64,000 nt of DNA. Source: an uncultured archaeon (lineage in GTDB: Archaea > Iainarchaeota > Iainarchaeia > Iainarchaeales > JAAZKV01). Shown here in pieces: positions 28,469-62,802 of this stretch. The stretch lies in contig CABMEU010000029.1 of assembly GCA_902385225.1 (NCBI GenBank), forward strand, positions 41,065-105,064, given 5' to 3'. The translations under genes and the position numbers were made by a program. Within the stretch, counting starts at the first letter, position 1. Each line of letters starts with the position of its first letter. The notes beneath the pieces are model-generated. The model did not search any database and had not been told where the DNA came from. It worked only from the letters and a program-made list of their open reading frames with translations.

Positions 28469-29269
28469 TCATATTTTTTCGAGCAAATAAATATGCTGGG
28501 TGTAATCCCCGCCGTCAAATTCATTTGCAGGCCGGTGGTATGATACTTTCTTAAAACCGCGGGGAATTATTGTGCGGTTCTCGCTTGTGAAGAGTATTTT
28601 GCCTCCTTTTCGCAAAATTGTGCGGCATTGTTGCAGGGTTTTTGTTAAATCCCCCGGGGTGTTATAAGATATTCCAAGGTTTGAATGAATAAAGTCCACT
28701 GAGTTTGGCTTAATCTTTTTTTCTAATTGCAGTGAGTGAAGTACCATCCACTTAATCTTCTTTGAGCCGCCCCATCTTCTCCACTCAGGCACTCTGGCAA
28801 GTCCTGTTGCGGTATAGCGCACCCCGGGAAGAGCCTTGACAATTTCTTTTGCAGCTTTCCCAACTCCCGTCCCAATTTCAAGTATCCTAAAATTTCTTTT
28901 GCCGGCTTTTTCACTGCGAATTAAATTCAATAAGTTTATTCCATAAAACTTGTTCAATCTCTTTAGCCCCGCGTCAAAACTGATTTCCCATTCACCATAC
29001 AGTTCGTAAGTTCTCTCCCGCCTATCCTTTTTTCTGCCTTGATTAATTAGTTCCAAATGATCCTTTCTTCTTATGCTCTCCTTCTCTCCAAACCTTGCAA
29101 CTGAATTAGCATGCGCCTTTTCTCTTAACCACTTTTCAAGCCTTACTTTATTTGGATCAATATTGTGCCTCTGCATTGTGTCCTCAGAAAATTTGTGGTA
29201 TCCGTCCCAGAGAATTTTGTCGAGCCTCTGTCGTTTCCTTGTGCCAAAACGCCTAATCATATAATACAA
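28469..29269 (-). CDS. Class I SAM-dependent methyltransferase
   Basis: FRILEIGTGVGKAAKEI motif I. Confidence 0.55.
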   Translation of the reverse strand: MYYMIRRFGTRKRQRLDKILWDGYHKFSEDTMQRHNIDPNKVRLEKWLREKAHANSVARFGEKESIRRKDHLELINQGRKKDRRERTYELYGEWEISFDAGLKRLNKFYGINLLNLIRSEKAGKRNFRILEIGTGVGKAAKEIVKALPGVRYTATGLARVPEWRRWGGSKKIKWMVLHSLQLEKKIKPNSVDFIHSNLGISYNTPGDLTKTLQQCRTILRKGGKILFTSENRTIIPRGFKKVSYHRPANEFDGGDYTQHIYLLEKI

Positions 29270-29368
29270 AGGGGCTTTGGAATTATTTATTCTTATGCGT
29301 TTAAGCGAAACTTTAGCCCCGATAAACCCTTAAAAATTCTTTCCTTGGTGACTTCTGTACTGATATTG

Positions 29369-32032
29369 ATGGATAATAAGAGCGGCTCGTTTTGGCTTGA
29401 GGTTGAGAAGAAGTGGCAGACTGCGTGGGAGAAAGAGAATATCTTTGAGGCAAAAGAGGATTCAAAGAAAAAAAAGTGCTATGTTCTAGAAATGTATCCC
29501 TACCCCAGCGCGAGCTTCCTCCACATGGGGCATGTAAGAAATTATGTTCTTGGGGATGTTTTTGCGAGATTCAAAAGAATGAGTAATTTTAGTGTTCTTT
29601 ACCCGATGGGTTATGACTCATTCGGTCTTCCTGCAGAAACCGCTGCGAAAAAAGAAGGGATTCATCCGAAGGTATACACTGAGCAGGCGATGGCAAAAAT
29701 AATGGGCTACCAAAAAGCGCTTGGGAATAGTTATGACTGGAATAGAACGCTTTCAAGTCATGAACCGGATTACTATAAGTGGAATCAGTTCTTTTTTATC
29801 AAAATGCTTGAAAATGGATTGGCATATAGAAAGAAAGCTCCTGTTAATTGGTGTGAAACATGCCAATCAGTTCTCGCGAATGAGGAAGCCGAAGGGGGCA
29901 AGTGCTGGAGATGCGGAAACGAAGTAATAAAGAGGGACATGGAGCAGTGGTTTTTGAAAATCACTGATTATGCTGACAGATTGCTTTCGGATTTGGATAA
30001 AATTGAGTGGCCCGAAAGAATCAAAACAATGCAGAGGAATTGGATTAACCGAAAAGAATGGATTGATATTGACTACAAAATTGACGGGGCTGATGAATCA
30101 ATCACCGTTTCAACTACAAGACCTGACACAAATTTTGGAGCGACTTTTGTTGTAATGGCCCCAGAGCATCCGCTCCTTTCAAGAGAAAAAAATCTTGTTC
30201 CTGCAGATAAGAGAAAAGCGGTTGATGATTACATTAAAATGGCATTGAAAAAAACTGATGAGGAAAGAATCGCGGAGGGAATGAAAAAAACTGGAGTATT
30301 CACGGGGCTTTATTGTGTGAACCAGTTGACAAAAAAGAAAATGCCTATTTGGGTAACTGATTTTGTTTTGCTAAATGTTGGGACAGGTGCGGTTGTGGGG
30401 GTTCCCGGGCACGATATTAGGGACTTTGAGTTCGCGAAAGAATTTGGTCTTCCTGTAATTAGAGTTGTTGTTGGAAAGGATGGGAATAAATCAGAAATAA
30501 CAAAAAAAGAACAGGTGCAGGAAGAAGAAGGAATAATGATTAATTCCGGATTCCTTGACGGAATGGATATTCACGCCGCTACAAAAAAAGTAATGGATTA
30601 TCTTGAAGAAAAAGGATTGGGAAGAAGAACAATCAGATACAAAATTAGAGACTGGATGATTTCCCGCCAGCGTTACTGGGGCACTCCAATTCCTGTTGTT
30701 TATTGTGATAAGTGCGGGGTTGTTTCGGTTCCTGAGAAAGAGCTTCCTGTTCTGCTTCCTGAGAAAGTTAATTTCAAGGTTACAGGTAATCCTCTTGCGA
30801 CAAGCGAAGAGTTTGTTAATACAAAGTGCCCGAAGTGCAAGGGAAAAGCAAGAAGAGAAACTGATACAATGGGCGGTTTCGTTGATTCATCATGGTACTT
30901 CCTAAGATACTGCGATAATAAAAATAAAACAAAGCCGTTTGATGATAAGAGAGTAAATTACTGGATGCCTGTTGACCAGTACATTGGCGGGGCGGAGCAT
31001 GCCGTAATGCACTTAATTTACGCGAGGTTTTTTGTTAAAGTGCTAAAGGATTTTGGGTTTGTTAAGTTTGATGAGCCCTTCCAAAAACTCTTTAATCAGG
31101 GAATTGTTTACAAAGATGGCGCGAAGATGTCAAAGTCAAAGGGAAATGTTGTTTTCCAAACAGATATTTCCGCAAAGTATGGAATTGATACGGCGAGATT
31201 GTTTTTGATGTTTGTTTCTTCTCCTGATAAACAAATGGAGTGGAGTGATGAGGGAATTGACGGCTCAAGCAGAATAATTAACCGATTCTTCAGGGTTGCC
31301 CAGAAAGTTAAACCCACAAAAGCGGATAAGAAAACAATTAGCAAATTAAATATGACCATTAAGGAAGCCGGAAAGAATATTGAAACATTTGACTATCCTA
31401 AAACAATTATCGCGATTTCGGATTTCTTAAACTATTTAGATTCGCTTGAGGAAGTTCCAAAGGAAGCGTTTGAATCGCTTTTGAAAATAGTTTCTCCGTT
31501 TTGCCCGCACATGGCGGAAGAGATTTGGCACGACTTGGGAAACAAATCATTTGTTTCAATCGCACAGTGGCCTTTGTTTGATGAGAAATTAATTGATACG
31601 CAGTTTGAGAAAATTGATTCGGTGATTGACTCTCTTCGCTCTGATATTATTAGAGTAAAACAACTCGCAAAGCTTGAGAAGGTTTCAAAAGTAAAATTAT
31701 TTGTTGCTCCTGAATGGAAATGGAAAGCTCTTGGAATTGTTCAAGTTGCGTGCAAGGAGCGCCCTGATTTTGGCGCTGCGATGAAAGCACTTATGAGCGA
31801 TGCTGAAATGAAGAAGCACGGAGCGGAAGTGCCAACTTTCCTAAAAACCGCGATGAATCGCTTGGCTGAGACCAGCGGGCTCGCTAAATTTGATGAGGCT
31901 GGCGTGCTTAATTCCGCAAAACCCGCGCTTGAGAAAGAATTCGGTTTAGTTGAAATAATTAAAGCAGAGGATTCAAAGGAAGTTAAAGCAAAGAACGCAT
32001 TCCCTGGGAAACCTGCGTTATTGATTGAGTAA
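29369..32032 (+). CDS. leuS: Leucyl-tRNA synthetase
   Basis: HMGHVRNY (HIGH-type) and AKMSKSKGN (KMSKS). Editing-domain-sized insertion. The start is trimmed to MDNKS; the track ORF's upstream extension overlaps the divergent promoter. Confidence 0.9.
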   Translation: MDNKSGSFWLEVEKKWQTAWEKENIFEAKEDSKKKKCYVLEMYPYPSASFLHMGHVRNYVLGDVFARFKRMSNFSVLYPMGYDSFGLPAETAAKKEGIHPKVYTEQAMAKIMGYQKALGNSYDWNRTLSSHEPDYYKWNQFFFIKMLENGLAYRKKAPVNWCETCQSVLANEEAEGGKCWRCGNEVIKRDMEQWFLKITDYADRLLSDLDKIEWPERIKTMQRNWINRKEWIDIDYKIDGADESITVSTTRPDTNFGATFVVMAPEHPLLSREKNLVPADKRKAVDDYIKMALKKTDEERIAEGMKKTGVFTGLYCVNQLTKKKMPIWVTDFVLLNVGTGAVVGVPGHDIRDFEFAKEFGLPVIRVVVGKDGNKSEITKKEQVQEEEGIMINSGFLDGMDIHAATKKVMDYLEEKGLGRRTIRYKIRDWMISRQRYWGTPIPVVYCDKCGVVSVPEKELPVLLPEKVNFKVTGNPLATSEEFVNTKCPKCKGKARRETDTMGGFVDSSWYFLRYCDNKNKTKPFDDKRVNYWMPVDQYIGGAEHAVMHLIYARFFVKVLKDFGFVKFDEPFQKLFNQGIVYKDGAKMSKSKGNVVFQTDISAKYGIDTARLFLMFVSSPDKQMEWSDEGIDGSSRIINRFFRVAQKVKPTKADKKTISKLNMTIKEAGKNIETFDYPKTIIAISDFLNYLDSLEEVPKEAFESLLKIVSPFCPHMAEEIWHDLGNKSFVSIAQWPLFDEKLIDTQFEKIDSVIDSLRSDIIRVKQLAKLEKVSKVKLFVAPEWKWKALGIVQVACKERPDFGAAMKALMSDAEMKKHGAEVPTFLKTAMNRLAETSGLAKFDEAGVLNSAKPALEKEFGLVEIIKAEDSKEVKAKNAFPGKPALLIE

Positions 32033-41979: not shown

Positions 41980-43332
41980 TTGATGAGCGAGAAGGGAAGG
42001 GTAAAGGAATACGAGGGTTATTTGGATTCTAATTACAAGCCGAACAGGGATGATTTGGTTTGCGAGTATTTTTTGGAACCCGCAAAAGGAATTACGCTTG
42101 AGAGTGCCGCGCAGAGAATCGCCTCAGAGTCAAGCATCGGAACTTGGACTGATATTGGAACTCTTCCTAAGAGAATGTTTGATGAACTCTCGCCAAGAGT
42201 TTTCTTCGTTGATAAAAAGAATAGTATTGTTCGAATCGCTTATTCAAAAAAACTCTTTGAGCCGAATAATATTTCACAGATCTTAAGCTCCGTTGCGGGA
42301 AATATTTTCGGAATGAGTGATGTGAAGAATCTAAAATTATTAGATATTGATTTCCCCGAGTCTTTTGTTGACAAGTATATGGGTCCGCATTATGGAATCG
42401 ACGGGGTAAGAAAGCTAATGAAAGTAAAATACAGGCCATTCGTTGGAACAATTGTAAAACCAAAACTTGGTCTTGATGAGAAGAAGCACGCGCAGGTGGC
42501 GTATGAGGCGTGGAAGGGCGGGTGCGATTATGTTAAGGATGATGAGAATCTCACCTCAATGAGCTTCAATAACTTTTACAAAAGAATTAATGTGACTCTT
42601 AGGGCGAGAGAAAAAGCGGAGCGGGAAACCGGCGAGCGAAAAGCGTATTTGCCAAATGTAACCGCGCCTTATGATGAAATGTTAAGAAGAGCAAGGCATG
42701 TTGTCCGCATGGGCGGAGAATTTGTGATGGTTGATGTGCTCACGGTTGGATTCTCCGGTATACAGGCGCTTCGTGACCACGATTTGAATGTGGTCTACCA
42801 TGGTCACCGCGCAATGCACGGCGCGTTTACCCGAAATCCTCATCATGGAATCTCAATGCTCGTGATAGCAAAACTCTGTCGTTTAATTGGAATTGACCAA
42901 TTGCATGTCGGCGGAGTTGTTGGGAAAATGTATGAAGGAAAAGAAGAGGTTACGGCTGTTGGGGAGGAAATTGAACAGCAAGTGGTAAGCAAAGATATTT
43001 TTAGGCACAGGCTTCAGCAGGACTGGTGTGACTTAAAGCCAATCCTTGCGGTTTGCTCTGGGGGGCTTCATCCTGGAAAAGTTCAGCCATTAATTCACGC
43101 AATGGGGAGAGATATAATTATCCAAGCCGGCGGAGGAATCCACGGCCACCCAAGAGGAACACTCGCGGGCGCAATGGCGATGAGGCAGGCGGTTGATGCG
43201 GAGATGGAAGCAAAGAGTCCTATTGAGTACGCAAAAACCCACTCGGAGCTTCGAGAAGCCTTGCAAAAATGGCACGGAATGAATTTTTACGAAAGGCATC
43301 ATGAGAGTTTGAGAAAAGGCGGGAAGAGATAG
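41980..43332 (+). CDS. rbcL: RuBisCO large subunit, form III (archaeal type)
   Basis: GGCDYVKDDENLTS, the carbamylated-Lys/KDDE active-site region. GLHPG and the GGGIHGHP C-terminal motif. 450 aa. No small-subunit gene nearby. Confidence 0.9.
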   Translation: MMSEKGRVKEYEGYLDSNYKPNRDDLVCEYFLEPAKGITLESAAQRIASESSIGTWTDIGTLPKRMFDELSPRVFFVDKKNSIVRIAYSKKLFEPNNISQILSSVAGNIFGMSDVKNLKLLDIDFPESFVDKYMGPHYGIDGVRKLMKVKYRPFVGTIVKPKLGLDEKKHAQVAYEAWKGGCDYVKDDENLTSMSFNNFYKRINVTLRAREKAERETGERKAYLPNVTAPYDEMLRRARHVVRMGGEFVMVDVLTVGFSGIQALRDHDLNVVYHGHRAMHGAFTRNPHHGISMLVIAKLCRLIGIDQLHVGGVVGKMYEGKEEVTAVGEEIEQQVVSKDIFRHRLQQDWCDLKPILAVCSGGLHPGKVQPLIHAMGRDIIIQAGGGIHGHPRGTLAGAMAMRQAVDAEMEAKSPIEYAKTHSELREALQKWHGMNFYERHHESLRKGGKR

Positions 43333-52917: not shown

Positions 52918-52990
52918 TTCAAAAACTGCCCCGATAGTGCAGTGGTCAAGCACATGAGCCTTTCAAGCTTGTAACCCGGGTTCGAATCCC
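52918..52990 (+). tRNA. tRNA-Glu (anticodon UUC)
   Basis: Manual fold: acceptor gccccga/tcggggt with a G1-U72 wobble. D-stem gtgc/gcac. Anticodon stem tgagc/gcttg with loop cTTTCaa, anticodon TTC. Variable loop taac. T-arm ccggg-ttcgaat-cccgg. Discriminator a. CCA is not encoded. Confidence 0.7.
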
Positions 52991-53014
52991 GGTCGGGGTA
53001 TTAAACGAATCCGT

Positions 53015-53917
53015 TTAGTTTAATTTGGTTCTGTAGTCCAGCATGCCGCATGCTGCGTCAATATCGGAGCCAAGAAGGTCTCTGATTGTAGTCATTATTC
53101 CCTTGGAATTCATGAGTTTCATAATTTCTGCGTATTTCTTGTCTGGCGGTGACGAGAATGCTTTTCCAATGTTTTCAGAGTATTTTGTGAGTTTAACTTC
53201 TGCATCAAATTTTTTTGCAAGGCTGATTAGTTTCTTAATGTGCTTTTTGGAATAATTGTTTTTCCCGCTTGGAAAGTTTAACAGCATATAATTTATCTTA
53301 AGTTTTTTTCCAAAGAAGTCCGCTAGTTCCTTGAATTTTGGCAAAATTTCTTCTATTTTGTATTTTTTGCCCAGATTTGGAATTAGCATCGCGCGTTCTT
53401 TGTCATATGGGCTGTGGAGCGATAATTGTATTCTGAATTCTACTTCGGGCATATTTTTCTTGTTTTTTAGAACCATTTCTTTGTATGGTTTAATCAAATT
53501 CAAGTTTCCAGCCGAGCTAATCCTAAAGACAATTCTGCGGAATCTGCTCTTTTTTCTTTTGAATGAAAGGAATCCGTTAATGCAGTTCTTAAGATTGTAG
53601 CTGGCTTCTCCCATGCCTTCAATGAGGATAAATAAGTCCTCGGGTTTTTTATCAAGAATCAGTTTTTTCATCGCCAAAATTCCTGAGTTTATTTGCTCGG
53701 TTATTTCATTTTTTGTTAAATTCCTGACAAACGGCGCGTCTCCTGTGGCGCAGAATGCGCATTTCTCAATGCAACCAACTTGTGATGAAACACAGAGATT
53801 TATTGAATTCACTTTGGCATCGTAGAATGAAACAGTGTAAAAGTGTTTGCCGTGTTTGTCCTCGAATGTTATCTTCTTCAATGGATCCGTTTTTGAATTT
53901 ATTATAATTTCTTTCAT
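53015..53917 (-). CDS. RlmN/Cfr-family radical SAM RNA methyltransferase-like enzyme
   Basis: SSQVGCIEKCAFCATGD matches the RlmN SSQVGCxxxCxFCxTG signature. At 300 aa it is shorter than bacterial RlmN. Confidence 0.7.
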   Translation of the reverse strand: MKEIIINSKTDPLKKITFEDKHGKHFYTVSFYDAKVNSINLCVSSQVGCIEKCAFCATGDAPFVRNLTKNEITEQINSGILAMKKLILDKKPEDLFILIEGMGEASYNLKNCINGFLSFKRKKSRFRRIVFRISSAGNLNLIKPYKEMVLKNKKNMPEVEFRIQLSLHSPYDKERAMLIPNLGKKYKIEEILPKFKELADFFGKKLKINYMLLNFPSGKNNYSKKHIKKLISLAKKFDAEVKLTKYSENIGKAFSSPPDKKYAEIMKLMNSKGIMTTIRDLLGSDIDAACGMLDYRTKLN

Positions 53918-53989: not shown

Positions 53990-55546
53990 TTATACCTTTT
54001 TTTTGTGCTTGATTCTCACTCCTTTTTTCATATACACTAGTCTTTCTGTCAGTCTTTTCTCAATGCCTATTTCTTTCAGCGGGAGCTGCGATAAACCCTG
54101 TATTCTTGAGTGCTTGTTAAATTTATTATAATTCTTTATGGCGAGAGTGATCTTGGCTTTTGGCAAAGTGTAGTGGCCAAGGCGTATTAACTCAAGAAGG
54201 TCACGCCACTTTATGCCTGAATTAATATTTTTTGAATATTGGTCGACTATGCTATAATCTGATTTAAGGTACTTTGACTTAACTTCTTCTTTTGTTGATT
54301 TTATAAGCGAAACTAATTCTTTTGGCATGCAGTCTAATACATCATAATTTACCCTGCCTTCTTTTAGGTAATCCTGAGTTACCCGAATCGAGTAATATAA
54401 CTTTAAACGGTCTTCTTCAAACAGCGATGAACTTGCAAAATCGCGCAGACTAATGGCTTTCATTCGGAGCATTGATTTTGGGTCAACCTCAAGAATTATT
54501 TTCTCCCGGTATTTCGCTCCTTTTTCAATAAATGAAAGCCTGAGGGGGTCGCTAAAAGTCGAATCGAGTATTTTCTCATAACTGTCCTCATACAAATTAA
54601 ATAAACCGTCCAATGATTGGTTTTGCCAGGTGGTAATATTCCCATTATAATAAACGCTCCAGTCGAGCCCCTTTGAGCCGTTTGTGTTGAAAACAACTGA
54701 AGGAAAATAATCTTCTGATTCTTTTAGGTCTTTGTCAAAAACATTCGTTGCTTTTTGGCAGTCTTTTTTTGAGTTTAAATTAATTCTCAGATTGCAAAAG
54801 AATACTTTGGCGAGTCCGACAACAATTTCTAGTCCCGAAGGAAGAGTAAGCGTGATTTTTTTTGGGATTACTTTAACTAATAATTTGTTATCGGAAGCTC
54901 TTTTGTGCGGATCGCCTTCCATAATTTTCACGGAAGGGTAGTGTAAAAGTAATTTAGTCAGGGTTTTATCGCCAAAAAATGAGTGCAGCTGCAGTTTGAG
55001 GGTGTCGGATTTGGCGTAGCGCTGATTGAATATATCGATTAGATTTCTGGCAGGTTCTAAACCCAAGTTTATTGAGTGGTCCGCGCTAAGGCTGAGGCGG
55101 ATGACAACTTTTGTGGGGGTTTTTCTTTTTTTTATTGTGTCTTCAATGCAGTCCAGATATGCAGTTGCGCTTTTTTTTGTCATCGCCCAAATTCCGCTTG
55201 TGACGAGGACTATGTGCGGCGTATTAATTTTCTCGATGCAAGTGAGCACTGCTTTTTTCATGTCCATTGGCTCTCCGCCGCCTGAGATGTGGAGATAGCC
55301 AACATTTGCTTTATTCGCAAATTCAACAAACTTCATGATGCCTGCGTCTGAGAACTGGTCTTTTTCCCTTTGTGGTCCCCTTGCCGGCTTTGACTTGAAA
55401 AAACAAAACGGACATGCTACGCGGCAGTATCTTGTGAAGAATACGCTGATAATTGATTTTCCTAAAAATTCTTTGCAGTCATAGCGAATCAGTTTTTGTT
55501 TTAAGAATTCTCTTCGGTATTTCTCCGGGGTATTAAAAATATTCAT
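53990..55546 (-). CDS. Radical SAM enzyme of unknown specificity, 518 aa, non-SPASM C-terminal domain
   Basis: CRVACPFC (CX3CX2C) near the N-terminus, and ISGGGEPMD. The roughly 300-aa C-terminal extension has no Cys cluster. The start ATG overlaps the stop of the downstream kinase as ATGA. Confidence 0.7.
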   Translation of the reverse strand: MNIFNTPEKYRREFLKQKLIRYDCKEFLGKSIISVFFTRYCRVACPFCFFKSKPARGPQREKDQFSDAGIMKFVEFANKANVGYLHISGGGEPMDMKKAVLTCIEKINTPHIVLVTSGIWAMTKKSATAYLDCIEDTIKKRKTPTKVVIRLSLSADHSINLGLEPARNLIDIFNQRYAKSDTLKLQLHSFFGDKTLTKLLLHYPSVKIMEGDPHKRASDNKLLVKVIPKKITLTLPSGLEIVVGLAKVFFCNLRINLNSKKDCQKATNVFDKDLKESEDYFPSVVFNTNGSKGLDWSVYYNGNITTWQNQSLDGLFNLYEDSYEKILDSTFSDPLRLSFIEKGAKYREKIILEVDPKSMLRMKAISLRDFASSSLFEEDRLKLYYSIRVTQDYLKEGRVNYDVLDCMPKELVSLIKSTKEEVKSKYLKSDYSIVDQYSKNINSGIKWRDLLELIRLGHYTLPKAKITLAIKNYNKFNKHSRIQGLSQLPLKEIGIEKRLTERLVYMKKGVRIKHKKKV

Positions 55547-56364
55547 TGTGTTTGTCTCCTTAGTATTTGTTTTAGGCGCCGGTTTGTTAATTGGTGAACC
55601 CTCATTTTGTCAAGTTGTATGCAGTTTCTGCCAAAATACATTGTGGGGATTTTAAAAAGCAAAGTAATCTCCGAGTGCTGGTCGCCAAAGCTATTGTTTT
55701 TTGCATAATCTAACAGAATCTTTCTCTCATTTGGAAAAGAACTTACATTGTTTTTTCCTCTGGTGCCGGGTGCAATTATTCTCTTTACTGTCAGGTAAAT
55801 CTCTCTCATTGACCGGTTCTCAGTTCTGATAATCTTATAGGGACCGCTGCAGATTTTTGGCAGCTCGTGCAAGTAAAAATCTCTTACGTGCTTGAGGAAT
55901 CTCTTTGATGTCCAAGGGAATTCCATTCTTTTTGAGCTCTTCTTTCGTCTTGCGATGCTTGATTTTGGAGAAGTATCAAAAATTAATACTAATTCAAACG
56001 GGTAGCGCGCCAAGTCCCTTTCGTAATCTCTTTTTACTTTTGAATATGTTTTGCTGTTATTGCATTTATCAAAAGCATATGAAAAAGCCAAATTACAGTA
56101 AAACGACCTGTCTAATAATAAATTCTCGGTTGACGGGCAGTATTTTTGAATAATTCTCATTCGCTGAACCCATTTCTTGTGGAATAATCTGCTCTGGGCC
56201 GAATTTGACATTCCTTTAAGCGATTCGCCGGGGTCAGTATGCATTTCCGGCAAAATATTATACTTGCCAAAATATGATTTTGCTAATTGGAATAATATGG
56301 TGGATTTGCCTGTTCCTGGCAGTCCTTCAAAAACAATCATAAAAACACCTTTGGTTTTTCGCAA
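55543..56364 (-). CDS. Deoxynucleoside-kinase/thymidylate-kinase-like P-loop kinase
   Basis: FEGLPGTGKSTIL Walker A. LLLDRSFYCNLAFSYAF resembles the dNK ERS(xx)S..F motif. Translationally coupled to the 518-aa radical SAM gene. Confidence 0.6.
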   Translation of the reverse strand: MRKTKGVFMIVFEGLPGTGKSTILFQLAKSYFGKYNILPEMHTDPGESLKGMSNSAQSRLFHKKWVQRMRIIQKYCPSTENLLLDRSFYCNLAFSYAFDKCNNSKTYSKVKRDYERDLARYPFELVLIFDTSPKSSIARRKKSSKRMEFPWTSKRFLKHVRDFYLHELPKICSGPYKIIRTENRSMREIYLTVKRIIAPGTRGKNNVSSFPNERKILLDYAKNNSFGDQHSEITLLFKIPTMYFGRNCIQLDKMRVHQLTNRRLKQILRRQTQ

Positions 56365-56693: not shown

Positions 56694-56769
56694 ATAATGC
56701 GAATTTGTGTTTTTGGTCAATAATGAAATTATTTTAAGCGTATTGTGGCGGATAATGGTTGTTGGTTTA

Positions 56770-57276
56770 ATGGATTTTTTAGAGCTCGCGAAGAAAAGGT
56801 ATAGTGTGCGTGGATACAAGCCGCAAGAAGTTGAAAAAGAAAAACTTGATTATGTTCTTGAGGCTTTTCGAATGGCTCCGACCGCATGCAACTTGCAGCC
56901 GTTTAAATTATTTGTGATTAAAACCAAGGGAAAAGAAAAAGCTCTTGGCGAGATTTGCGGTTCGTGGAAGTGGTTTACTGAGGCTCCGCTGCTGCTTTGC
57001 GTTTGTGCGCTTCCCAAAAAAGCGTGGTCGCGCGCTGATGGAAAGAATTATTCTGACGTGGATTGCGCAATCGCGTTTGATCACTTGGTGCTCGCAGCTA
57101 CAGAGAAGGGTCTTGGCACCTGCTGGGTGGCAAAATTTAATGTTGCTAAGGCAAAAGAATTGCTTGGAATTAAAAATGATTTTGAGCCGATTGCTTTTAC
57201 TCCGCTTGGATATCCTAAAGTTGAGGCGGGAAGGAAAATAAGAAAACCCGTGGAAGAGTTAGTTGAGTTTCTCTGA
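56770..57276 (+). CDS. Nitroreductase family protein
   Basis: MDFLELAKKRYSVRGYKPQEV and PTACNLQPFKLFVIK. The start is trimmed to MDFLEL. Confidence 0.8.
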   Translation: MDFLELAKKRYSVRGYKPQEVEKEKLDYVLEAFRMAPTACNLQPFKLFVIKTKGKEKALGEICGSWKWFTEAPLLLCVCALPKKAWSRADGKNYSDVDCAIAFDHLVLAATEKGLGTCWVAKFNVAKAKELLGIKNDFEPIAFTPLGYPKVEAGRKIRKPVEELVEFL

Positions 57277-57317: not shown

Positions 57318-58679
57318 TTAAGAAAATAAATACTCTTTTGCCTCTTTAAACACTCTTACAATATTAAATGATTTTATCAGCATAAAAGAAACATGCCGGG
57401 TGCTTTTGAAGAACAAAAGGCTAGTGTATATTGGCAGCGTGTATGAAATTACTGTGGCAAGAGCCGCCCCGTTGATTCCGTAAAGCGGAATGAGAATCAA
57501 ATTCAGAATTATATTTGTCACCGCTCCGAAGAATGAGATAAAAAACAAAGTTTTCAATTTGTTCTCATTAATAAGATACTTTTCCAAAATAAACTTTACC
57601 GATATTGCAAGAGCGCTCCAAACAATAATTGAGAGGGTGAATCCTGCTGAGAGATATTCGGAGCCGTATAAAACATATATTATAAAGTCCGAGAAGAAGA
57701 AAATTGGGACCATGAATAAGAATGGCGCCCAAGTCATTAAATCAAAAACTTTCTGCAAGCGAGAGTGGTAAATAATAGCTGATATTTTCTTTGACCTGAC
57801 TAGGGTCGGGAATACCGAAACGCTGATTAATCCCGGGATAAATACAAACAACTCGGATATTTTTACCGCCACCGAATAAAGTCCCACTTCATAATCATTC
57901 ATCATAAATCCAAGCATTACCTGGTCGATTCTTAGATAGATTATTACCATCGCGCCCGAGAAGATGAGCGGCCAGCTGGATGAAATCAGTCTTTTTGCCA
58001 AACCAAAATCAAATTTCCATAAGAACAAGCTTTGTTTGTCTTTAAAGTATGAGTAAAAAATAAAAGAGATTCTGACTATTGTGTCAAAAAGGCTCGCGAT
58101 TACAATAAATATCAGGCTGAAGTTCAGAAGAATAAATACTATCTTAAGCAGATTGGAAACAATAAGCCCGCCGGTTCTTGAAATCACAATTGTTTTTGAC
58201 TCAATTTTTGATTCAAACCAAAATGAGGGCAGGTCAAATGCGGATATAACATAACCTAGCGAGAATACAAATACCACCCAGAACGACAGCATATCAAGCG
58301 GGCGGAGAATCAGAATGAACACGCACATTAATGCCATTGAAATAGTTCCTGTGATGAATTGAATCCAAAAAGTTGTTCCAAATAAAACGTTTCTCTTTTT
58401 TGGAAAATTAATGAGTTCGCGGACAAGTATTGATGAAACCCCCAGTCCCACAAACGGACCAAAAAGAGAGGTAAACGCAATCGCAAAATTCATCAGTCCA
58501 AAATCGCTTGGTCCAAGGTATCTTGCAACCCAAAGCCCGACCAAAAGTGACACTACTAGCTGCAGTATTCTGTCGGCGGTCAGCCAGCTTACGCTGAAAA
58601 CTATTTTTTTCAGCTCGGGGCGCAAAAACAGCTTCTCTTTTACGAAAAGAATCTTTCCCACTATACCTTTTTTGGCCAT
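57318..58679 (-). CDS. Wzx-like MOP-superfamily oligosaccharide flippase (polysaccharide biosynthesis protein family)
   Basis: About 12-14 transmembrane helices. N-terminal ...LVGLWVARYLGPSDFGLMNFAIA matches the ARyLGpxxyG signature of Polysacc_synt proteins. Confidence 0.65.
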   Translation of the reverse strand: MAKKGIVGKILFVKEKLFLRPELKKIVFSVSWLTADRILQLVVSLLVGLWVARYLGPSDFGLMNFAIAFTSLFGPFVGLGVSSILVRELINFPKKRNVLFGTTFWIQFITGTISMALMCVFILILRPLDMLSFWVVFVFSLGYVISAFDLPSFWFESKIESKTIVISRTGGLIVSNLLKIVFILLNFSLIFIVIASLFDTIVRISFIFYSYFKDKQSLFLWKFDFGLAKRLISSSWPLIFSGAMVIIYLRIDQVMLGFMMNDYEVGLYSVAVKISELFVFIPGLISVSVFPTLVRSKKISAIIYHSRLQKVFDLMTWAPFLFMVPIFFFSDFIIYVLYGSEYLSAGFTLSIIVWSALAISVKFILEKYLINENKLKTLFFISFFGAVTNIILNLILIPLYGINGAALATVISYTLPIYTSLLFFKSTRHVSFMLIKSFNIVRVFKEAKEYLFS

Positions 58680-58730
58680 AATTAAATGAGCTATAATAAG
58701 ATATAAATACTCAGTTAGTACAAAGTAAAT

Positions 58731-59417
58731 TTACTGTTTGAAGACATAAAGAAATACTGCGCCTTTTAGTTCAATAGGAAGCCAGAACAGAAGAGCTTTT
58801 TTTATTCTTGAATTAGGGTGGGAAACATAATAGCTGTCAAGTTTTAGCCCCGCTCTTCTTGATAGTTCAAGAGCCAAAGAAGGCGTGACCCATGAGATGT
58901 GCTCAAGGTTTGCCACTACCGTTCCCTCAGCAGGAATTCTAAGTATTGTTCCTATAAAATACGGGTTTGGGGTGGAGACTAAAATCTGCCCGTTTTTCTC
59001 AAGATGCCTTTTTGCAAACTTCAATAATTTAACCGGGTCATTTACATGCTCAATAACGTCCCCGATATTTACAATATCAAACTTTTCGCCAAGATATTTA
59101 TCTGACGTCGCGTCGGCAAACATGCAGTTATACCCCTCTTTTTTCAGATAACTAATTAGCTCTTTATTAATATCAATTCCAAGGCAGTACTTCGCAAGCT
59201 TGGATATTTTTCTGTGGCTCCATGAATCTGATTTAATGTGGGCTATTGAGTGCTCGCAGATTCCAATATCTAAAACTCTTTTTCCCTCAATTTTCTTTAG
59301 AACCAGTTCCTTAAGATTTCCTTTTTTATTTATTATTCTGTGCGCAAGCAGATATTCGTGCGCTTTATCAGAATCCGATTTATCAAGCGGATTATTGCTC
59401 TTGTCTGCCCAGCTCAT
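58731..59417 (-). CDS. Class I SAM-dependent methyltransferase
   Basis: VLDIGICEHS motif I, then DIVNIGDVIEH. Confidence 0.65.
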   Translation of the reverse strand: MSWADKSNNPLDKSDSDKAHEYLLAHRIINKKGNLKELVLKKIEGKRVLDIGICEHSIAHIKSDSWSHRKISKLAKYCLGIDINKELISYLKKEGYNCMFADATSDKYLGEKFDIVNIGDVIEHVNDPVKLLKFAKRHLEKNGQILVSTPNPYFIGTILRIPAEGTVVANLEHISWVTPSLALELSRRAGLKLDSYYVSHPNSRIKKALLFWLPIELKGAVFLYVFKQ

Positions 59418-59538
59418 AGCTGAATAAACAAAAAACGAATTTAAATAGCTTTCTTCAAAATTAATCGCACTTAATTAGGTGCCTATTCGGTTGCTCGCCT
59501 GCGGATAGAAATAAATTCTCATCCGCGAAATAGTCTTC

Positions 59539-60540
59539 TTATATTTTAGGAATGTAAAATGTGCATTTCTCGCACACTTTTGGAATAGTTCCATTTTCAA
59601 ATCCAGCCAAGATAGAATCATACTTTTCTGAGTTAAATGCTTCCTTCAGAGTCATCTTTAGAATATTTCCAACAATTAATTCATCATCAAAAGTTTTCAA
59701 CACTCTGCATCCGCACGCCCTTATGTTTCCGTTCGGGAGAATTGAGAATCCAAATAAGTTCTGGCAGGGGTATTTCTTAATTTTTGGCGCGCCGCTCATA
59801 GTTTGAAATCCAATAAGGTCCTTCTTTGAAATAGACCCTCCCCAGTTATCATATGCCGTCAAATAATCCATTTTGAATAGGCCCTTCTGGTAATATTCCC
59901 AAAAAGGGGTTTTTTTCATATCTTTTATGATTTTATTAAATTCCCTCATGGGTCTAAACGAAAGCTGGATATTGATTTTCTTATTTCTTTTTATTAATTC
60001 CAAAATGGCATCTAATTTCTGCCTGCACTGCTCCTCTGATACTTGAAACACTTTGGATTCATACAGGGGGATTACATCAGCCACATCAATTAGTATGGTC
60101 TCAAGTTTGGAACTGAGGATTTTGTCAATATTATTTTTAATTAAAAATCCGTTTGTGTAAAAAGAGCAGGTCATTTTGTTTTCGTAAATATAATCTATTT
60201 TCTCAAATAATCCATTGTCAAGCAGCGGTTCTCCAATCATGGGTGTTAAGCCGATGGAAGTAATTCCCAGCTCTTTAAATTCATCAACAGCTTTTTTGAA
60301 TATTTCAAAAGGCATGATTCCTCTTTCGCTCTCAATGTGCCGATTAGCGCAGAATGTGCAGTTCGCGTTGCAATAGGTGGATGGGAATATTCCTCCGCCA
60401 AGGAGCTCTTTTTTGTATTTCTTTCCTGTTGCCAAAGCGGTTATGCTTTTGCAGTCCTCAATGATAAACTTATTTTTATAATATATTTTCTTCGCATTGC
60501 AAAAATTATATTTTAAAAAGTCGGATATTTCTTTATTCAT
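59539..60540 (-). CDS. Radical SAM enzyme with a Cys-rich, SPASM/twitch-like C-terminal region
   Basis: YCNANCTFCANR (CX3CX2C) and a C-terminal CQNLFGFSILPNGNIRACGC...CEKC. Confidence 0.7.
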   Translation of the reverse strand: MNKEISDFLKYNFCNAKKIYYKNKFIIEDCKSITALATGKKYKKELLGGGIFPSTYCNANCTFCANRHIESERGIMPFEIFKKAVDEFKELGITSIGLTPMIGEPLLDNGLFEKIDYIYENKMTCSFYTNGFLIKNNIDKILSSKLETILIDVADVIPLYESKVFQVSEEQCRQKLDAILELIKRNKKINIQLSFRPMREFNKIIKDMKKTPFWEYYQKGLFKMDYLTAYDNWGGSISKKDLIGFQTMSGAPKIKKYPCQNLFGFSILPNGNIRACGCRVLKTFDDELIVGNILKMTLKEAFNSEKYDSILAGFENGTIPKVCEKCTFYIPKI

Positions 60541-60642
60541 TTTGAAGCACTTCCATGCAGGGTTTAATCACATTCAGCCGGTATCAGTTAAGAATTAATT
60601 GAATAGTGTAATTATTTAAACAACAACTAACTACTATGTGTC

Positions 60643-61332
60643 GTGAGTTTAATGCTGGCAAAATTACAAAAAGCGACAGATAAAGTATTCTCAGTGCTCT
60701 CTGATTTAAATCACGCAAATATATATTACTCGCAGACTGGGGAAGATATAATATTGAGGGATATTTTTTGGAAAAAAGATAATGGGTTTTATGTGGATAT
60801 TGGGGCTCATCACCCGAAAAGATTCTCCAATACTTATTTATTGTATAAAAAGGGGTGGAGCGGAATTAATGTTGATGCTGATAAAAGAAGCATTGAGCTT
60901 TTCTTGCGGCACCGAAAAAGGGACATTAATTTGAATTTGGCGGTTTCGGATAAAAAGCGCGAGTTGGAATTCTTTGAGTTTAACGACGGGGCAATAAATA
61001 CTTTTTCGCAGGAAGAAGCAAAAAGAATAGCGCTGTCAAGAAAAGAAACTCCTAAGAAATATTCTCTTCAAACAGTCACTTTGAAGTATTTGCTTGACAC
61101 CTATCTTCCAAAAGACAAAAATATTGATTTGCTGACAATAGATATTGAGGGATTTGACGAGAAAGCCCTTAAATCGAATGACTGGAAAAAGTACAGGCCG
61201 AATTATATTCTCGTGGAAATGTTTGACAGTCCGTTCAAAAAAGAACACAAGTCAATAATTAAATTACTTGAAAGAAACGGATATGAGTTTTACGCGAAAA
61301 CTAATATAACTGCGATATTCAAAAGAAAATAA
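60643..61332 (+). CDS. FkbM-family methyltransferase
   Basis: FYVDIGAHHPKRFSNTYLL...GINVDADKRS matches the FkbM DIGAN.G core. Confidence 0.65.
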   Translation: MSLMLAKLQKATDKVFSVLSDLNHANIYYSQTGEDIILRDIFWKKDNGFYVDIGAHHPKRFSNTYLLYKKGWSGINVDADKRSIELFLRHRKRDINLNLAVSDKKRELEFFEFNDGAINTFSQEEAKRIALSRKETPKKYSLQTVTLKYLLDTYLPKDKNIDLLTIDIEGFDEKALKSNDWKKYRPNYILVEMFDSPFKKEHKSIIKLLERNGYEFYAKTNITAIFKRK

Positions 61333-61461
61333 ACGCGCCGTCCAAGAAGTGCCGGTGGTTAATGCAAGTTCTCCTAAGAATAAGTCCTGTTCTTGGCGTG
61401 ATAAACTCTCAAAATAGTTTTGCGGGTAGATATTTATACTGCTTTTTTCATACTAAACTGC

Positions 61462-62802
61462 ATGAATACATTTAGTTTTCGGGCGCAGGGTACCGCCGAG
61501 TACTTGGTGATAATAGGGGTAATCGTTGTTATTTCCCTTGCGGTAATTGGGCTGTTAAACTCCCAATCAACTTCTATTGAAAGTGTTTCAGGAAACTCTT
61601 CTCAAGTAAAGCAAAAAATCGGGGTTTATGGGGTAAGTATTGTTGATGCTATCGGGGGGCTGGATGAGAACGGGCTGCTCGTTTTGAGTAACACAAGCGG
61701 AGAGAATTTCACTGTGACAAATATTAATGTGGATGGGGTGGATCATGAATATTCTAATTTGGTTTTCTCTGGAGAATCAAAGCCATTCAAATTGCAGAGC
61801 ATTCTTGCGTGCGAGGGCGCCAGCAGAAATTATTCCATAAAAATTTATTATACGAGCTCCACCGGACTTGAGAAAGTGGCTGATTTTGATAAAATATCTA
61901 TTGACTGTGCCTTAGCTGTGACTGGAAATACAGTTTTTGTTGAAGAGGGTTTGGATTTTACTCCCCCTTCAATTAATTTGTATTCTCCTGCGGATAATAA
62001 TTCAATATCCTCCGCGGACAGCAATGTTGAATTTATTTTCAGTTCCGACCAGGATACGAACGCATGCTATTTGTATGTTCAGGACGAGGGGGTTTGGAAT
62101 ATTGCGGATCAAAATCTCTCAACGGTTCTTGCGGACAGTAATTACTATATGGACGCGAACATTGCATATTTTGGGGAAGGAGATCATTATTGGGATGTGA
62201 ATTGCACTGATACTAATGGTCTTGTGGGAACGGCGGCTGATAGAAACATTAATTATACCGCGCCGGTAGTACAGGGAGCTTCTTTTACAAATCTTCTAAC
62301 AAATCCAGGAATGGAAACTGGCACTTACACCGGGTGGACGCCGAGCATAACTGCGCAAGTTGCGGGGGCATGCACTTGGAACGGGCTTGTTCTTTGCATT
62401 GACACTGGTCCGCTGTATGAAGGAAATTATAGTGTTCGTTTTAGCTATAATCCCGCAACGCTAAGCCAGGAAATTGATTTGGTTTCAAAGGGTTATGCGG
62501 CAAATTATCTTGACACCTCTCCTGATGTGAATATCGTGGATCATGTTATTGGATATTTTAACACTTCAGATTATTACCGGCTTAAAGTGGAATTAAGAAA
62601 CTCAAGCCATGGTGTGATAACAAGTTACAACACGGGGATTCTGACTTCCTCAGGAAGCTGGGCTACAATAAATTATTTATTCAGCGGTTATGCGTCCGGA
62701 CTGAGATACATTTATTTTGAGAGATATGGTGATGATGTTGAGTCTTGGGGCGGCTCATACGGCCCGGTTTTTAACGGCGCCGCGGTTTATTTTACTGAGT
62801 GA
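61462..62802 (+). CDS. Secreted surface protein with a class-III (archaeal type IV pilin-like) signal peptide, rich in N-glycosylation sequons
   Basis: MNTFSFRAQGTAEYLVIIGVIVVISLAVIGLL fits the Class_III signal-peptide pattern (QxxAEYL plus a hydrophobic stretch). The mature domain of about 410 aa carries many N-x-S/T sites (NTSG, NFT, NYS, NNS, NLS, NCT, NYT, NSS and others). The track ORF starts 42 nt upstream at 61420. Confidence 0.65.
   Translation: MNTFSFRAQGTAEYLVIIGVIVVISLAVIGLLNSQSTSIESVSGNSSQVKQKIGVYGVSIVDAIGGLDENGLLVLSNTSGENFTVTNINVDGVDHEYSNLVFSGESKPFKLQSILACEGASRNYSIKIYYTSSTGLEKVADFDKISIDCALAVTGNTVFVEEGLDFTPPSINLYSPADNNSISSADSNVEFIFSSDQDTNACYLYVQDEGVWNIADQNLSTVLADSNYYMDANIAYFGEGDHYWDVNCTDTNGLVGTAADRNINYTAPVVQGASFTNLLTNPGMETGTYTGWTPSITAQVAGACTWNGLVLCIDTGPLYEGNYSVRFSYNPATLSQEIDLVSKGYAANYLDTSPDVNIVDHVIGYFNTSDYYRLKVELRNSSHGVITSYNTGILTSSGSWATINYLFSGYASGLRYIYFERYGDDVESWGGSYGPVFNGAAVYFTE

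Follow-up and report, generated by a model that had tools for sequence, protein, structure and literature searches.

A kinase-coupled radical SAM enzyme of an uncharacterized family in an uncultured archaeon, part of a putative nucleotide-modifying module

Three consecutive genes on the minus strand

The 64,000-nucleotide (nt) stretch analyzed here (the window, from contig CABMEU010000029.1 of an uncultured archaeon; coordinates follow its own numbering) carries three consecutive minus-strand genes between positions 53015 and 56364. They encode, in this order, a P-loop kinase of the thymidylate kinase/deoxynucleoside kinase (TMK/dNK) superfamily, a 518-amino-acid (aa) radical S-adenosylmethionine (SAM) protein (rSAM), and an RlmN/Cfr-like class A radical SAM methyl synthase of 300 aa. 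The kinase (55543..56340, minus strand) is 265 aa long if read from the ATG at 56340, and its mechanical open reading frame (ORF; 55543..56364, minus strand) reaches upstream to a TTG for a total of 273 aa. The ATG, which has GGTG 5 nt upstream, is likely the true start, as in the NCBI record of the protein (VVB75802.1, "Thymidylate kinase [uncultured archaeon]", 265 aa). At the junction with the rSAM gene (53990..55546, minus strand; VVB75800.1, "Uncharacterised protein"), the minus strand reads ...cacaATGAat, so that the rSAM ATG (55546-55544) and the kinase TGA (55545-55543) overlap by 4 nt within the ATGA at 55543..55546. Within the kinase gene, 9 nt before this ATG, is an AAGGAG Shine-Dalgarno-like motif. 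The RlmN/Cfr-like gene (53015..53917, minus strand) follows 72 nt downstream of the rSAM gene.

Motifs, fold, and relatives of the radical SAM protein

Curated-library matches to the 518-aa protein were generic, below threshold, and limited to its first ∼130 residues. They comprised Pfam Radical_SAM (27.7 bits, slightly below the cutoff of 29.5), NCBIfam rSAM_yydG (23.6 bits; cutoff, 300) and viperin_w_prok (NF038283; 20.7 bits; cutoff, 180; residues 32 to 119 only), and PADLOC pVip (E value of 1.1e-3). Residues 135 to 518 had no match in these libraries, and neither Pfam, NCBIfam, nor PADLOC holds a model for the family. A word-indexed search returned 82 homologue clusters that align over the full length of the protein at 32 to 50% identity, and an exhaustive HMMER search recovered 158 representatives at E values of ≤1e-30. 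Judged by these alignments, the protein is a member of a coherent, well-defined, uncharacterized family, of which literature searches on its domain combinations found no description.

An alignment of 42 family sequences revealed invariant columns at the predicted [4Fe-4S] cluster motif C41-x3-C45-x2-C48 (55403..55426, minus strand), at all four positions of the SAM-binding GGE motif G89-G90-G91-E92 (55271..55282, minus strand), and at T116-S117, R150, and S152. The C-terminal half is similarly constrained, with D273, Y300, G302, W307, R368, D369, L383, Y384, L453, H458, and R502 also invariant. The three cluster cysteines are the only cysteine columns of this kind; the next best are 79% and 69% conserved, and neither is a cysteine in the window protein. 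The family is therefore predicted to lack an auxiliary Fe-S cluster.

The AlphaFold2 (AF2) model of the protein (pLDDT of 91.7) shows a barrel core that ends near residue 310, followed by an all-helical domain spanning residues ∼320 to 518 (53993..54589, minus strand). The model matches radical SAM structures at a Foldseek probability of 1.0. The nearest PDB structure to the core is that of the peptide epimerase EpeE/YydG (E value of 5e-8; TM-score of 0.42 normalized to the query and 0.64 to the target), followed in the ranking by MoaA (E value of 9e-6), anSME, and BlsE. Consistently, the family profile retrieved YydG from the PDB sequences (3e-8), whereas its match to viperin (5vsl/6q2p) had an E value of 0.59 and was confined to the cluster loop (residues 36 to 97); no viperin entry appeared within the top 50 Foldseek PDB matches of the model. 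For the helical domain, which is specific to the family and common to all its members, neither Pfam nor a Foldseek search against the PDB provided a match. The earlier note on this DNA, made from the letters alone, had assigned ∼300 aa to a C-terminal domain of no recognizable homology; the lack of homology stands, but the domain measures ∼200 aa, and the remainder belongs to the radical SAM barrel. With motifs and fold in place and the NCBIfam models far under their cutoffs, we conclude from sequence and predicted structure that the protein is a true radical SAM enzyme of a new family. By curated models, Foldseek, or family profile, it is neither a viperin nor a MoaA or QueE, which the earlier note had named among the subfamilies to compare it with. 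An identity as queuine lyase was also considered and dropped, as no curated model matched.

The likeness to EpeE/YydG, and to MoaA, anSME, BlsE, and BtrN among the SPASM/twitch enzymes, resides in a common barrel core and cluster loop, and two of these relatives, MoaA and BlsE, likewise have nucleotide or nucleoside substrates. Unlike SPASM/twitch enzymes, the family has no auxiliary Fe-S cysteines, shares 12 to 14% identity with them, and bears an unrelated C-terminal domain. The match to a peptide epimerase, both as the nearest solved structure and as the best profile hit, raises the alternative that the rSAM is a maturase of ribosomally synthesized and posttranslationally modified peptides, acting on an exported peptide next to nucleotide enzymes that are there incidentally. 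The operons of its closest relatives do contain ABC-2 exporters, and Peptidase_S51 is the commonest neighbor of the family. Nonetheless, a peptide substrate is very improbable: with only three invariant cysteines, the family has no auxiliary cluster of the SPASM or twitch kind, its score against the YydG model is 23.6 bits (cutoff, 300), no precursor-like small ORF adjoins the kinase/rSAM unit within the window, and it would be hard to explain why the rSAM is covalently fused to nucleotide or phosphoester enzymes of at least six kinds.

Recurrent partners of the radical SAM family

One genome per species was scanned, which delivered ∼58 loci with true rSAM homologues; ORFs were called and clustered and neighborhoods mapped, resulting in 47 nonredundant loci, including the window. 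The family is rare and very patchily distributed among Chlamydiae, Verrucomicrobia, Alphaproteobacteria (including Paracaedibacteraceae and Enterousia), Patescibacteria, a metagenome-assembled genome (MAG) labeled Nitrospinae, many gut Bacilli and Clostridia MAGs, a Woesearchaeota MAG, and Acinetobacter albensis, whose homologue (locus L056) is the most distant member. Searches of viral contigs, phage records, and plasmid records recovered no homologue of the rSAM.

The kinase has the P-loop, DR(S/T)(F/Y) motif, and Arg-rich lid of the TMK/dNK superfamily but differs from its known members by scoring below every curated cutoff tested and by a C-terminal extension of ∼70 aa. Its matches were Pfam AAA_28 (29.6 bits) and Thymidylate_kin (PF02223; 23.3 bits; cutoff, 27), NCBIfam dTMP kinase (TIGR00041; 32.5 bits; cutoff, 83.25), the deoxynucleoside kinase of PDB entry 8puu (E value of 9.8e-5), and, also weakly, PF01712. 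The best match in the defense libraries, PADLOC VakA (E value of 3.9e-6; 25.5 bits; model positions 5 to 158 of 163), is a weak one; the PADLOC model has no curated cutoff, and generic TMK models score similarly on this kinase. The motifs EGLPGTGKST (Walker A/P-loop GLPGTGKST at 56299..56325, minus strand), LLLDRSFY, and ARRKKSSKR (the Arg-rich lid) are conserved in an alignment of the subfamily (A2), where the P-loop residues G6, P8, G9, G11, and K12 are invariant. The subfamily is rare, with about 6 protein clusters, and its mark is the conserved C-terminal extension, which contains FAK-N-LG, IPT-YF, and IQL motifs. An AF2 model derived from a 5-sequence alignment was poor (pLDDT of 55.9), and no fold search was based on it.

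Members of this subfamily adjoin the rSAM in the window and in loci L009, L011, L012, L040, and L091-L097, and other TMK-like kinases do so in L052 and L021. In Alphaproteobacteria and the Nitrospinae-labeled MAG, the pair is embedded in a conserved cassette that runs from a LuxR-NB-ARC-TPR STAND gene through the rSAM and the kinase to an adenylate kinase, often near insertion sequence (IS) or type IV secretion system (T4SS) genes. The kinase directly follows the rSAM in these bacteria, the reverse of the archaeal order, which implies that the adjacency outlived a rearrangement, and a neighbor-joining tree of the rSAM core distributes the kinase link over at least three separate clades. The recurrence of the same kinase subfamily beside the same rSAM family in unrelated bacteria argues for a functional link between the two. 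The earlier note had quoted the ATGA overlap and the Walker A and LLLDRSFY motifs correctly, and the co-occurrence in other genomes that it proposed to look for was found. Its step from translational coupling to shared function is strengthened by this recurrence, but not by the 4-nt overlap alone, which is common within operons. It had also allowed for a generic thymidylate kinase, which agrees neither with 32.5 bits against a cutoff of 83.25 nor with the repeated position beside the rSAM.

Two further observations concern bacterial members of the kinase subfamily. These, like the adjacent adenylate kinase, begin with hydrophobic, signal-peptide-like segments (L009, 11598-13330; L084, 7920-8798; L086, 7920-8777), an unexpected feature for nucleotide kinases that the kinase of the window does not share. 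Locus L086 (3780-12817) encodes a subfamily member and no rSAM, along with four Gfo/Idh/MocA-like oxidoreductases, a CysQ/IMPase-like phosphatase, an EamA-like transporter, a PfkB-like kinase, and an adenosine deaminase. With functions judged by eye from motifs, it looks like a different nucleoside-related cluster.

The 300-aa product of the third gene, a recurrent partner absent from the earlier note, resembles RlmN and Cfr in its cluster motif, in both mechanistic cysteines, and in a full-length alignment from the core onward, but remains below equivalog cutoffs (TIGR00048; 134.5 bits; cutoff, 290; starting at model position 78 of 355). Its best PDB match, Cfr (9p0p; E value of 7.6e-25), aligns only from Cfr residue 68, so that the N-terminal accessory domain of ∼65 residues is missing. 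C42, C49/C53/C56, and C290 are invariant in the 5 members of the group, with C42 and C290 equivalent to the mechanistic C118 and C355 of Escherichia coli RlmN. Unlike RlmN/Cfr genes in housekeeping contexts, this group recurs beside the putative nucleotide-modifying rSAM. It directly adjoins the rSAM in 5/47 loci (the window, L010, L014, L015, and L021) with four different lineage labels, and the two genes overlap in L015. This adjacency suggests that the RlmN/Cfr-like gene is probably part of the rSAM pathway.

Retention of all mechanistic cysteines is also what would be expected if the rSAM and the RlmN/Cfr-like enzyme modified tRNA or rRNA and the kinase were an ordinary TMK sharing their operon. 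The NCBI label of the kinase and the lack of a second TMK among the window genes fit this scenario, as do an AlaRS-catalytic-domain-like protein and RelA/SpoT among the partners elsewhere. RNA modification nevertheless seems improbable. The kinase fails the dTMP kinase cutoffs and belongs to a rare, extension-bearing subfamily that travels with the rSAM in bacteria, the RlmN-like protein is devoid of the N-terminal accessory domain, and the TIM-barrel adenosine deaminase, NUDIX, dUTPase-like, nucleoside diphosphate kinase (NDK), and adenylate kinase partners of the family use free nucleotides, not RNA.

Covalent fusions of the rSAM are diverse. The most frequent carries a C-terminal histidine phosphatase (His_Phos_1) domain (12/47 loci), which is encoded by a separate gene overlapping the rSAM in L101 and L102. 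NUDIX domains are fused either C-terminally (L033, L042, and L044) or N-terminally (P0120), and adenosine deaminase is part of the protein in L045, L049, and L052; this deaminase is of the same group as the free-standing enzyme beside the rSAM in other Clostridia loci (33 to 55% identity). Single fusions involve a dCTP-deaminase/dUTPase-like domain (P0116), a PHP phosphoesterase (P0105), an ARMT1-like phosphatase (P0150), a B12-binding rSAM (P0135), and a SIR2-like domain (P0103). Some library proteins that contain the rSAM domain are very large, at 1,474 to 6,629 aa (P0103, P0149, P0153, and P0157), one of them with a SIR2-like domain and one with a His_Phos_1 domain.

Across 46 loci, we counted 112 same-strand neighbors within two genes of the rSAM. 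Peptidase_S51 (8), NUDIX (7), Radical_SAM (6), and Thymidylate_kin (5) were the commonest Pfam families, with NB-ARC/TPR (4) and RelA/SpoT (3) next. The adenylate kinase neighbor scores above its curated cutoff; an NDK-domain protein, a CYTH triphosphatase, and an endonuclease/exonuclease/phosphatase (EEP) family protein were also identified, the last together with ABC-2 or MFS exporters. A Vut_1/YhhQ-type transporter lies beside the rSAM in L102, and exporters are commoner partners than importers. Serine recombinases join STAND NTPases, the SIR2-like fusion, and IS or T4SS genes as further links. Nearly every identifiable partner is predicted to handle nucleotides or phosphate esters, and it is mainly for this reason that we assign a nucleotide substrate to the rSAM.

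Some partner clusters gave fainter signals. Cluster c6 (L024, 8993-9973, and 11 other loci) comprises proteins of 320 to 340 aa that are usually encoded just upstream of His_Phos_1-fused rSAMs and accompanied by a Peptidase_S51 gene. They resemble the catalytic N terminus of alanyl-tRNA synthetase (NCBIfam E value of 2.6e-5; PDB entry 1riq, 0.14), which hints at an aminoacyl-nucleotide product in this clade. Cluster c9 (L001, 10209-11072; L103, 4051-4890), a ∼280-aa partner in Chlamydiae-type operons, may be a nucleotidyl cyclase: its sole PDB matches are the adenylate cyclase toxins CyaA and ExoY (E value of 0.3, over the ATP-binding lysine motif), with a weak Pfam Anthrax_toxA match and weak class II adenylate cyclase signals. 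Clusters c10 and c12, two small partner families, were taken by eye for minimal nucleotidyltransferases, a label that is a guess, as their mutual hhalign probability is 0.5% and neither has a detectable relation to a PDB chain. Partner c8 yielded only spurious matches to designed propeller proteins.

A putative nucleotide-modifying pathway and its surroundings

The analysis establishes the gene structure, the coherence of the family, its radical SAM motifs and fold, the fusions, and the neighborhoods; the substrate, reaction type, order of steps, and biological role proposed here are our reading of these associations. We favor the interpretation that a single unit, comprising the kinase and rSAM genes and probably also the RlmN/Cfr-like gene, produces a modified nucleotide, probably of the purine/adenine type. 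That the module modifies nucleotides of some sort appears reasonably likely from the sequence data, and any particular substrate or role is considerably less certain. The TMK-like kinase would phosphorylate a nucleoside monophosphate (NMP) or an analogue toward the di- or triphosphate, thereby supplying or trapping the substrate. The rSAM would cleave SAM at its single [4Fe-4S] cluster to generate a 5′-deoxyadenosyl radical, which would take a hydrogen from the ribose or base of the nucleotide, with rearrangement, dehydration, or oxidation to follow; the conserved, Arg/Lys/His-rich helical C-terminal domain may cap the barrel and hold the phosphates. By analogy with RlmN/Cfr chemistry, the shortened enzyme could place a methyl group on an sp2 carbon of the product, for example, C2 or C8 of adenine. 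In other lineages, phosphatases, NUDIX enzymes, and deaminases would trim the product to a nucleoside, to be released by exporters.

This scheme is reminiscent of viperin, which produces a 3′-deoxy-3′,4′-didehydro-nucleoside triphosphate (NTP) from an NTP and whose counterpart of the kinase step is CMPK2; viperin and its nucleotide kinase yield chain-terminating antiviral nucleotides that are useful drug leads. As with viperin and CMPK2/VakA, the rSAM is genetically coupled to a TMK-family NMP kinase, here in roughly 13% of loci. Among viperins, an NMP kinase is a neighbor in 12% of the bacterial and 5% of the archaeal cases, and fusions to a triphosphatase occur in some (bioRxiv 10.1101/2023.09.13.557418). 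Occasional phosphatase- or triphosphatase-type fusions and a patchy, mobile distribution are likewise common to the two families. In contrast, the 518-aa protein is ∼200 aa longer, has a unique helical C-terminal domain, and conforms neither to the curated viperin model nor to the viperin-type fold; the nucleotide substrate, demonstrated for viperin, is for this family deduced from its partners. An unrelated radical SAM family appears to follow the genetic logic of viperin-kinase modules, in line with the comparison drawn in the earlier note and backed by the fusions, adjacent nucleotide enzymes, and recurring kinase subfamily. The weak VakA match of the kinase and the ATGA overlap with its Shine-Dalgarno-like motif point the same way. 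The module would represent a kinase-coupled nucleotide modifier built on an uncharacterized enzyme family.

Several observations weigh against this interpretation. The closest relatives of the window rSAM (48 to 50% identity) reside in Chlamydiae-type operons that lack a kinase and instead encode unknown proteins and an ABC-2 exporter beside them. No characterized homologue of the rSAM was found, and its nearest solved structure is, as described, a peptide epimerase. The adenosine deaminase partner could clear the 5′-deoxyadenosine by-product instead of acting on the product. The dCTP-deaminase-like fusion suggests that the base may differ between clades, so that adenine is not certain in the window archaeon. 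Three metagenomic loci contain the kinase subfamily without the rSAM, one of them among adenosine deaminase, PfkB kinase, and CysQ-like genes. Finally, a 72-nt spacer of its own precedes the RlmN-like gene, which could specify a housekeeping RNA methylase.

For a nucleotide-modifying unit, the most likely role is the production of an antimetabolite or conflict molecule, which fits the patchy distribution, the mobile-element neighbors, the STAND and SIR2 links, and the exporters. A different role, in salvage or repair, would have the module recycle or detoxify a damaged or unusual nucleoside or cofactor in genome-reduced symbionts, for example, a 7-deazapurine or a 5′-deoxyadenosine-type compound. 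The hosts include Chlamydiae, Paracaedibacteraceae, Patescibacteria, gut Bacilli and Clostridia MAGs, and the Woesearchaeota MAG. The Vut_1/YhhQ-family transporter in L102, the fusion to the ARMT1-like damage-control phosphatase, and a RuBisCO large subunit encoded in the window would also suit such a function. This RuBisCO (450 aa; 41980-43332, plus strand; Pfam E value of 7e-88) lies ∼11 kb from the module; archaeal RuBisCOs of this kind often serve AMP/nucleotide salvage. Salvage or repair is still unlikely given the rarity and very patchy distribution of the family, its links to STAND NTPases, a SIR2-like fusion, serine recombinases, and IS or T4SS genes, and the prevalence of exporters over importers.

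With nucleotide modification for conflict as the preferred reading, we consider it possible, but only tentatively, that radical SAM enzymes making nucleotide analogues include a second, independent lineage, represented by this family and seen here for the first time, whose product would be a modified and possibly C-methylated adenine nucleotide or nucleoside, not known before and directed against viruses or competitors. If so, the lineage would span DPANN-type archaea, Patescibacteria, Chlamydiae, and gut bacteria, and its RlmN/Cfr-like partner would be unprecedented among class A methyl synthases in using a free nucleotide in place of RNA, which might give the RlmN/Cfr-type methylases their first small-molecule substrate. 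Solving the chemistry of the module could yield a new nucleotide analogue and a new radical SAM reaction, and the fusions narrow the candidate substrates enough for a direct biochemical test to be practical.

A glycan-type gene set upstream of the unit (57318-61332) encodes a Wzx-like flippase, a class I methyltransferase, an rSAM-SPASM protein of 333 aa (best model, tungsten-cofactor maturase; 67 bits, well below the cutoff), and an FkbM methyltransferase. The earlier note had raised the option of a modified nucleotide-sugar or nucleoside antibiotic step serving these neighbors. The proximity of the flippase, the two methyltransferases, and the rSAM-SPASM gene would accord with a nucleotide-sugar product, as would the RmlD-like reductase gene that follows the A. 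albensis homologue. This option has scarcely any likelihood in our view: a nitroreductase gene on the opposite strand (56707..57276, plus strand) splits the two gene sets, and glycosyltransferase or sugar genes do not recur among the neighbors in the 46 loci. No member of the upstream set is conserved next to the rSAM family in other genomes.

At the other end of the unit, the RlmN-like gene ends 14 nt away from a tRNA-Glu(TTC) gene (52927-53001, plus strand), and the GC profile shows a slight decrease over 53 to 61 kb, to 0.36 to 0.40. Together, the tRNA and the lower GC are a weak hint of an island boundary; the dip is too small to call a genomic island over this interval. Two other window genes deserve mention. 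A 460-aa protein (61420-62802, plus strand) ends in an F-box-associated domain (FBA; PF04300; E value of 4.6e-18), a glycan-binding domain typical of eukaryotes. A leucyl-tRNA synthetase (955 aa; 29165-32032, plus strand) scores as the bacterial type (TIGR00396; 897 bits, above the cutoff) and far lower with the archaeal models, which suggests its acquisition from bacteria.

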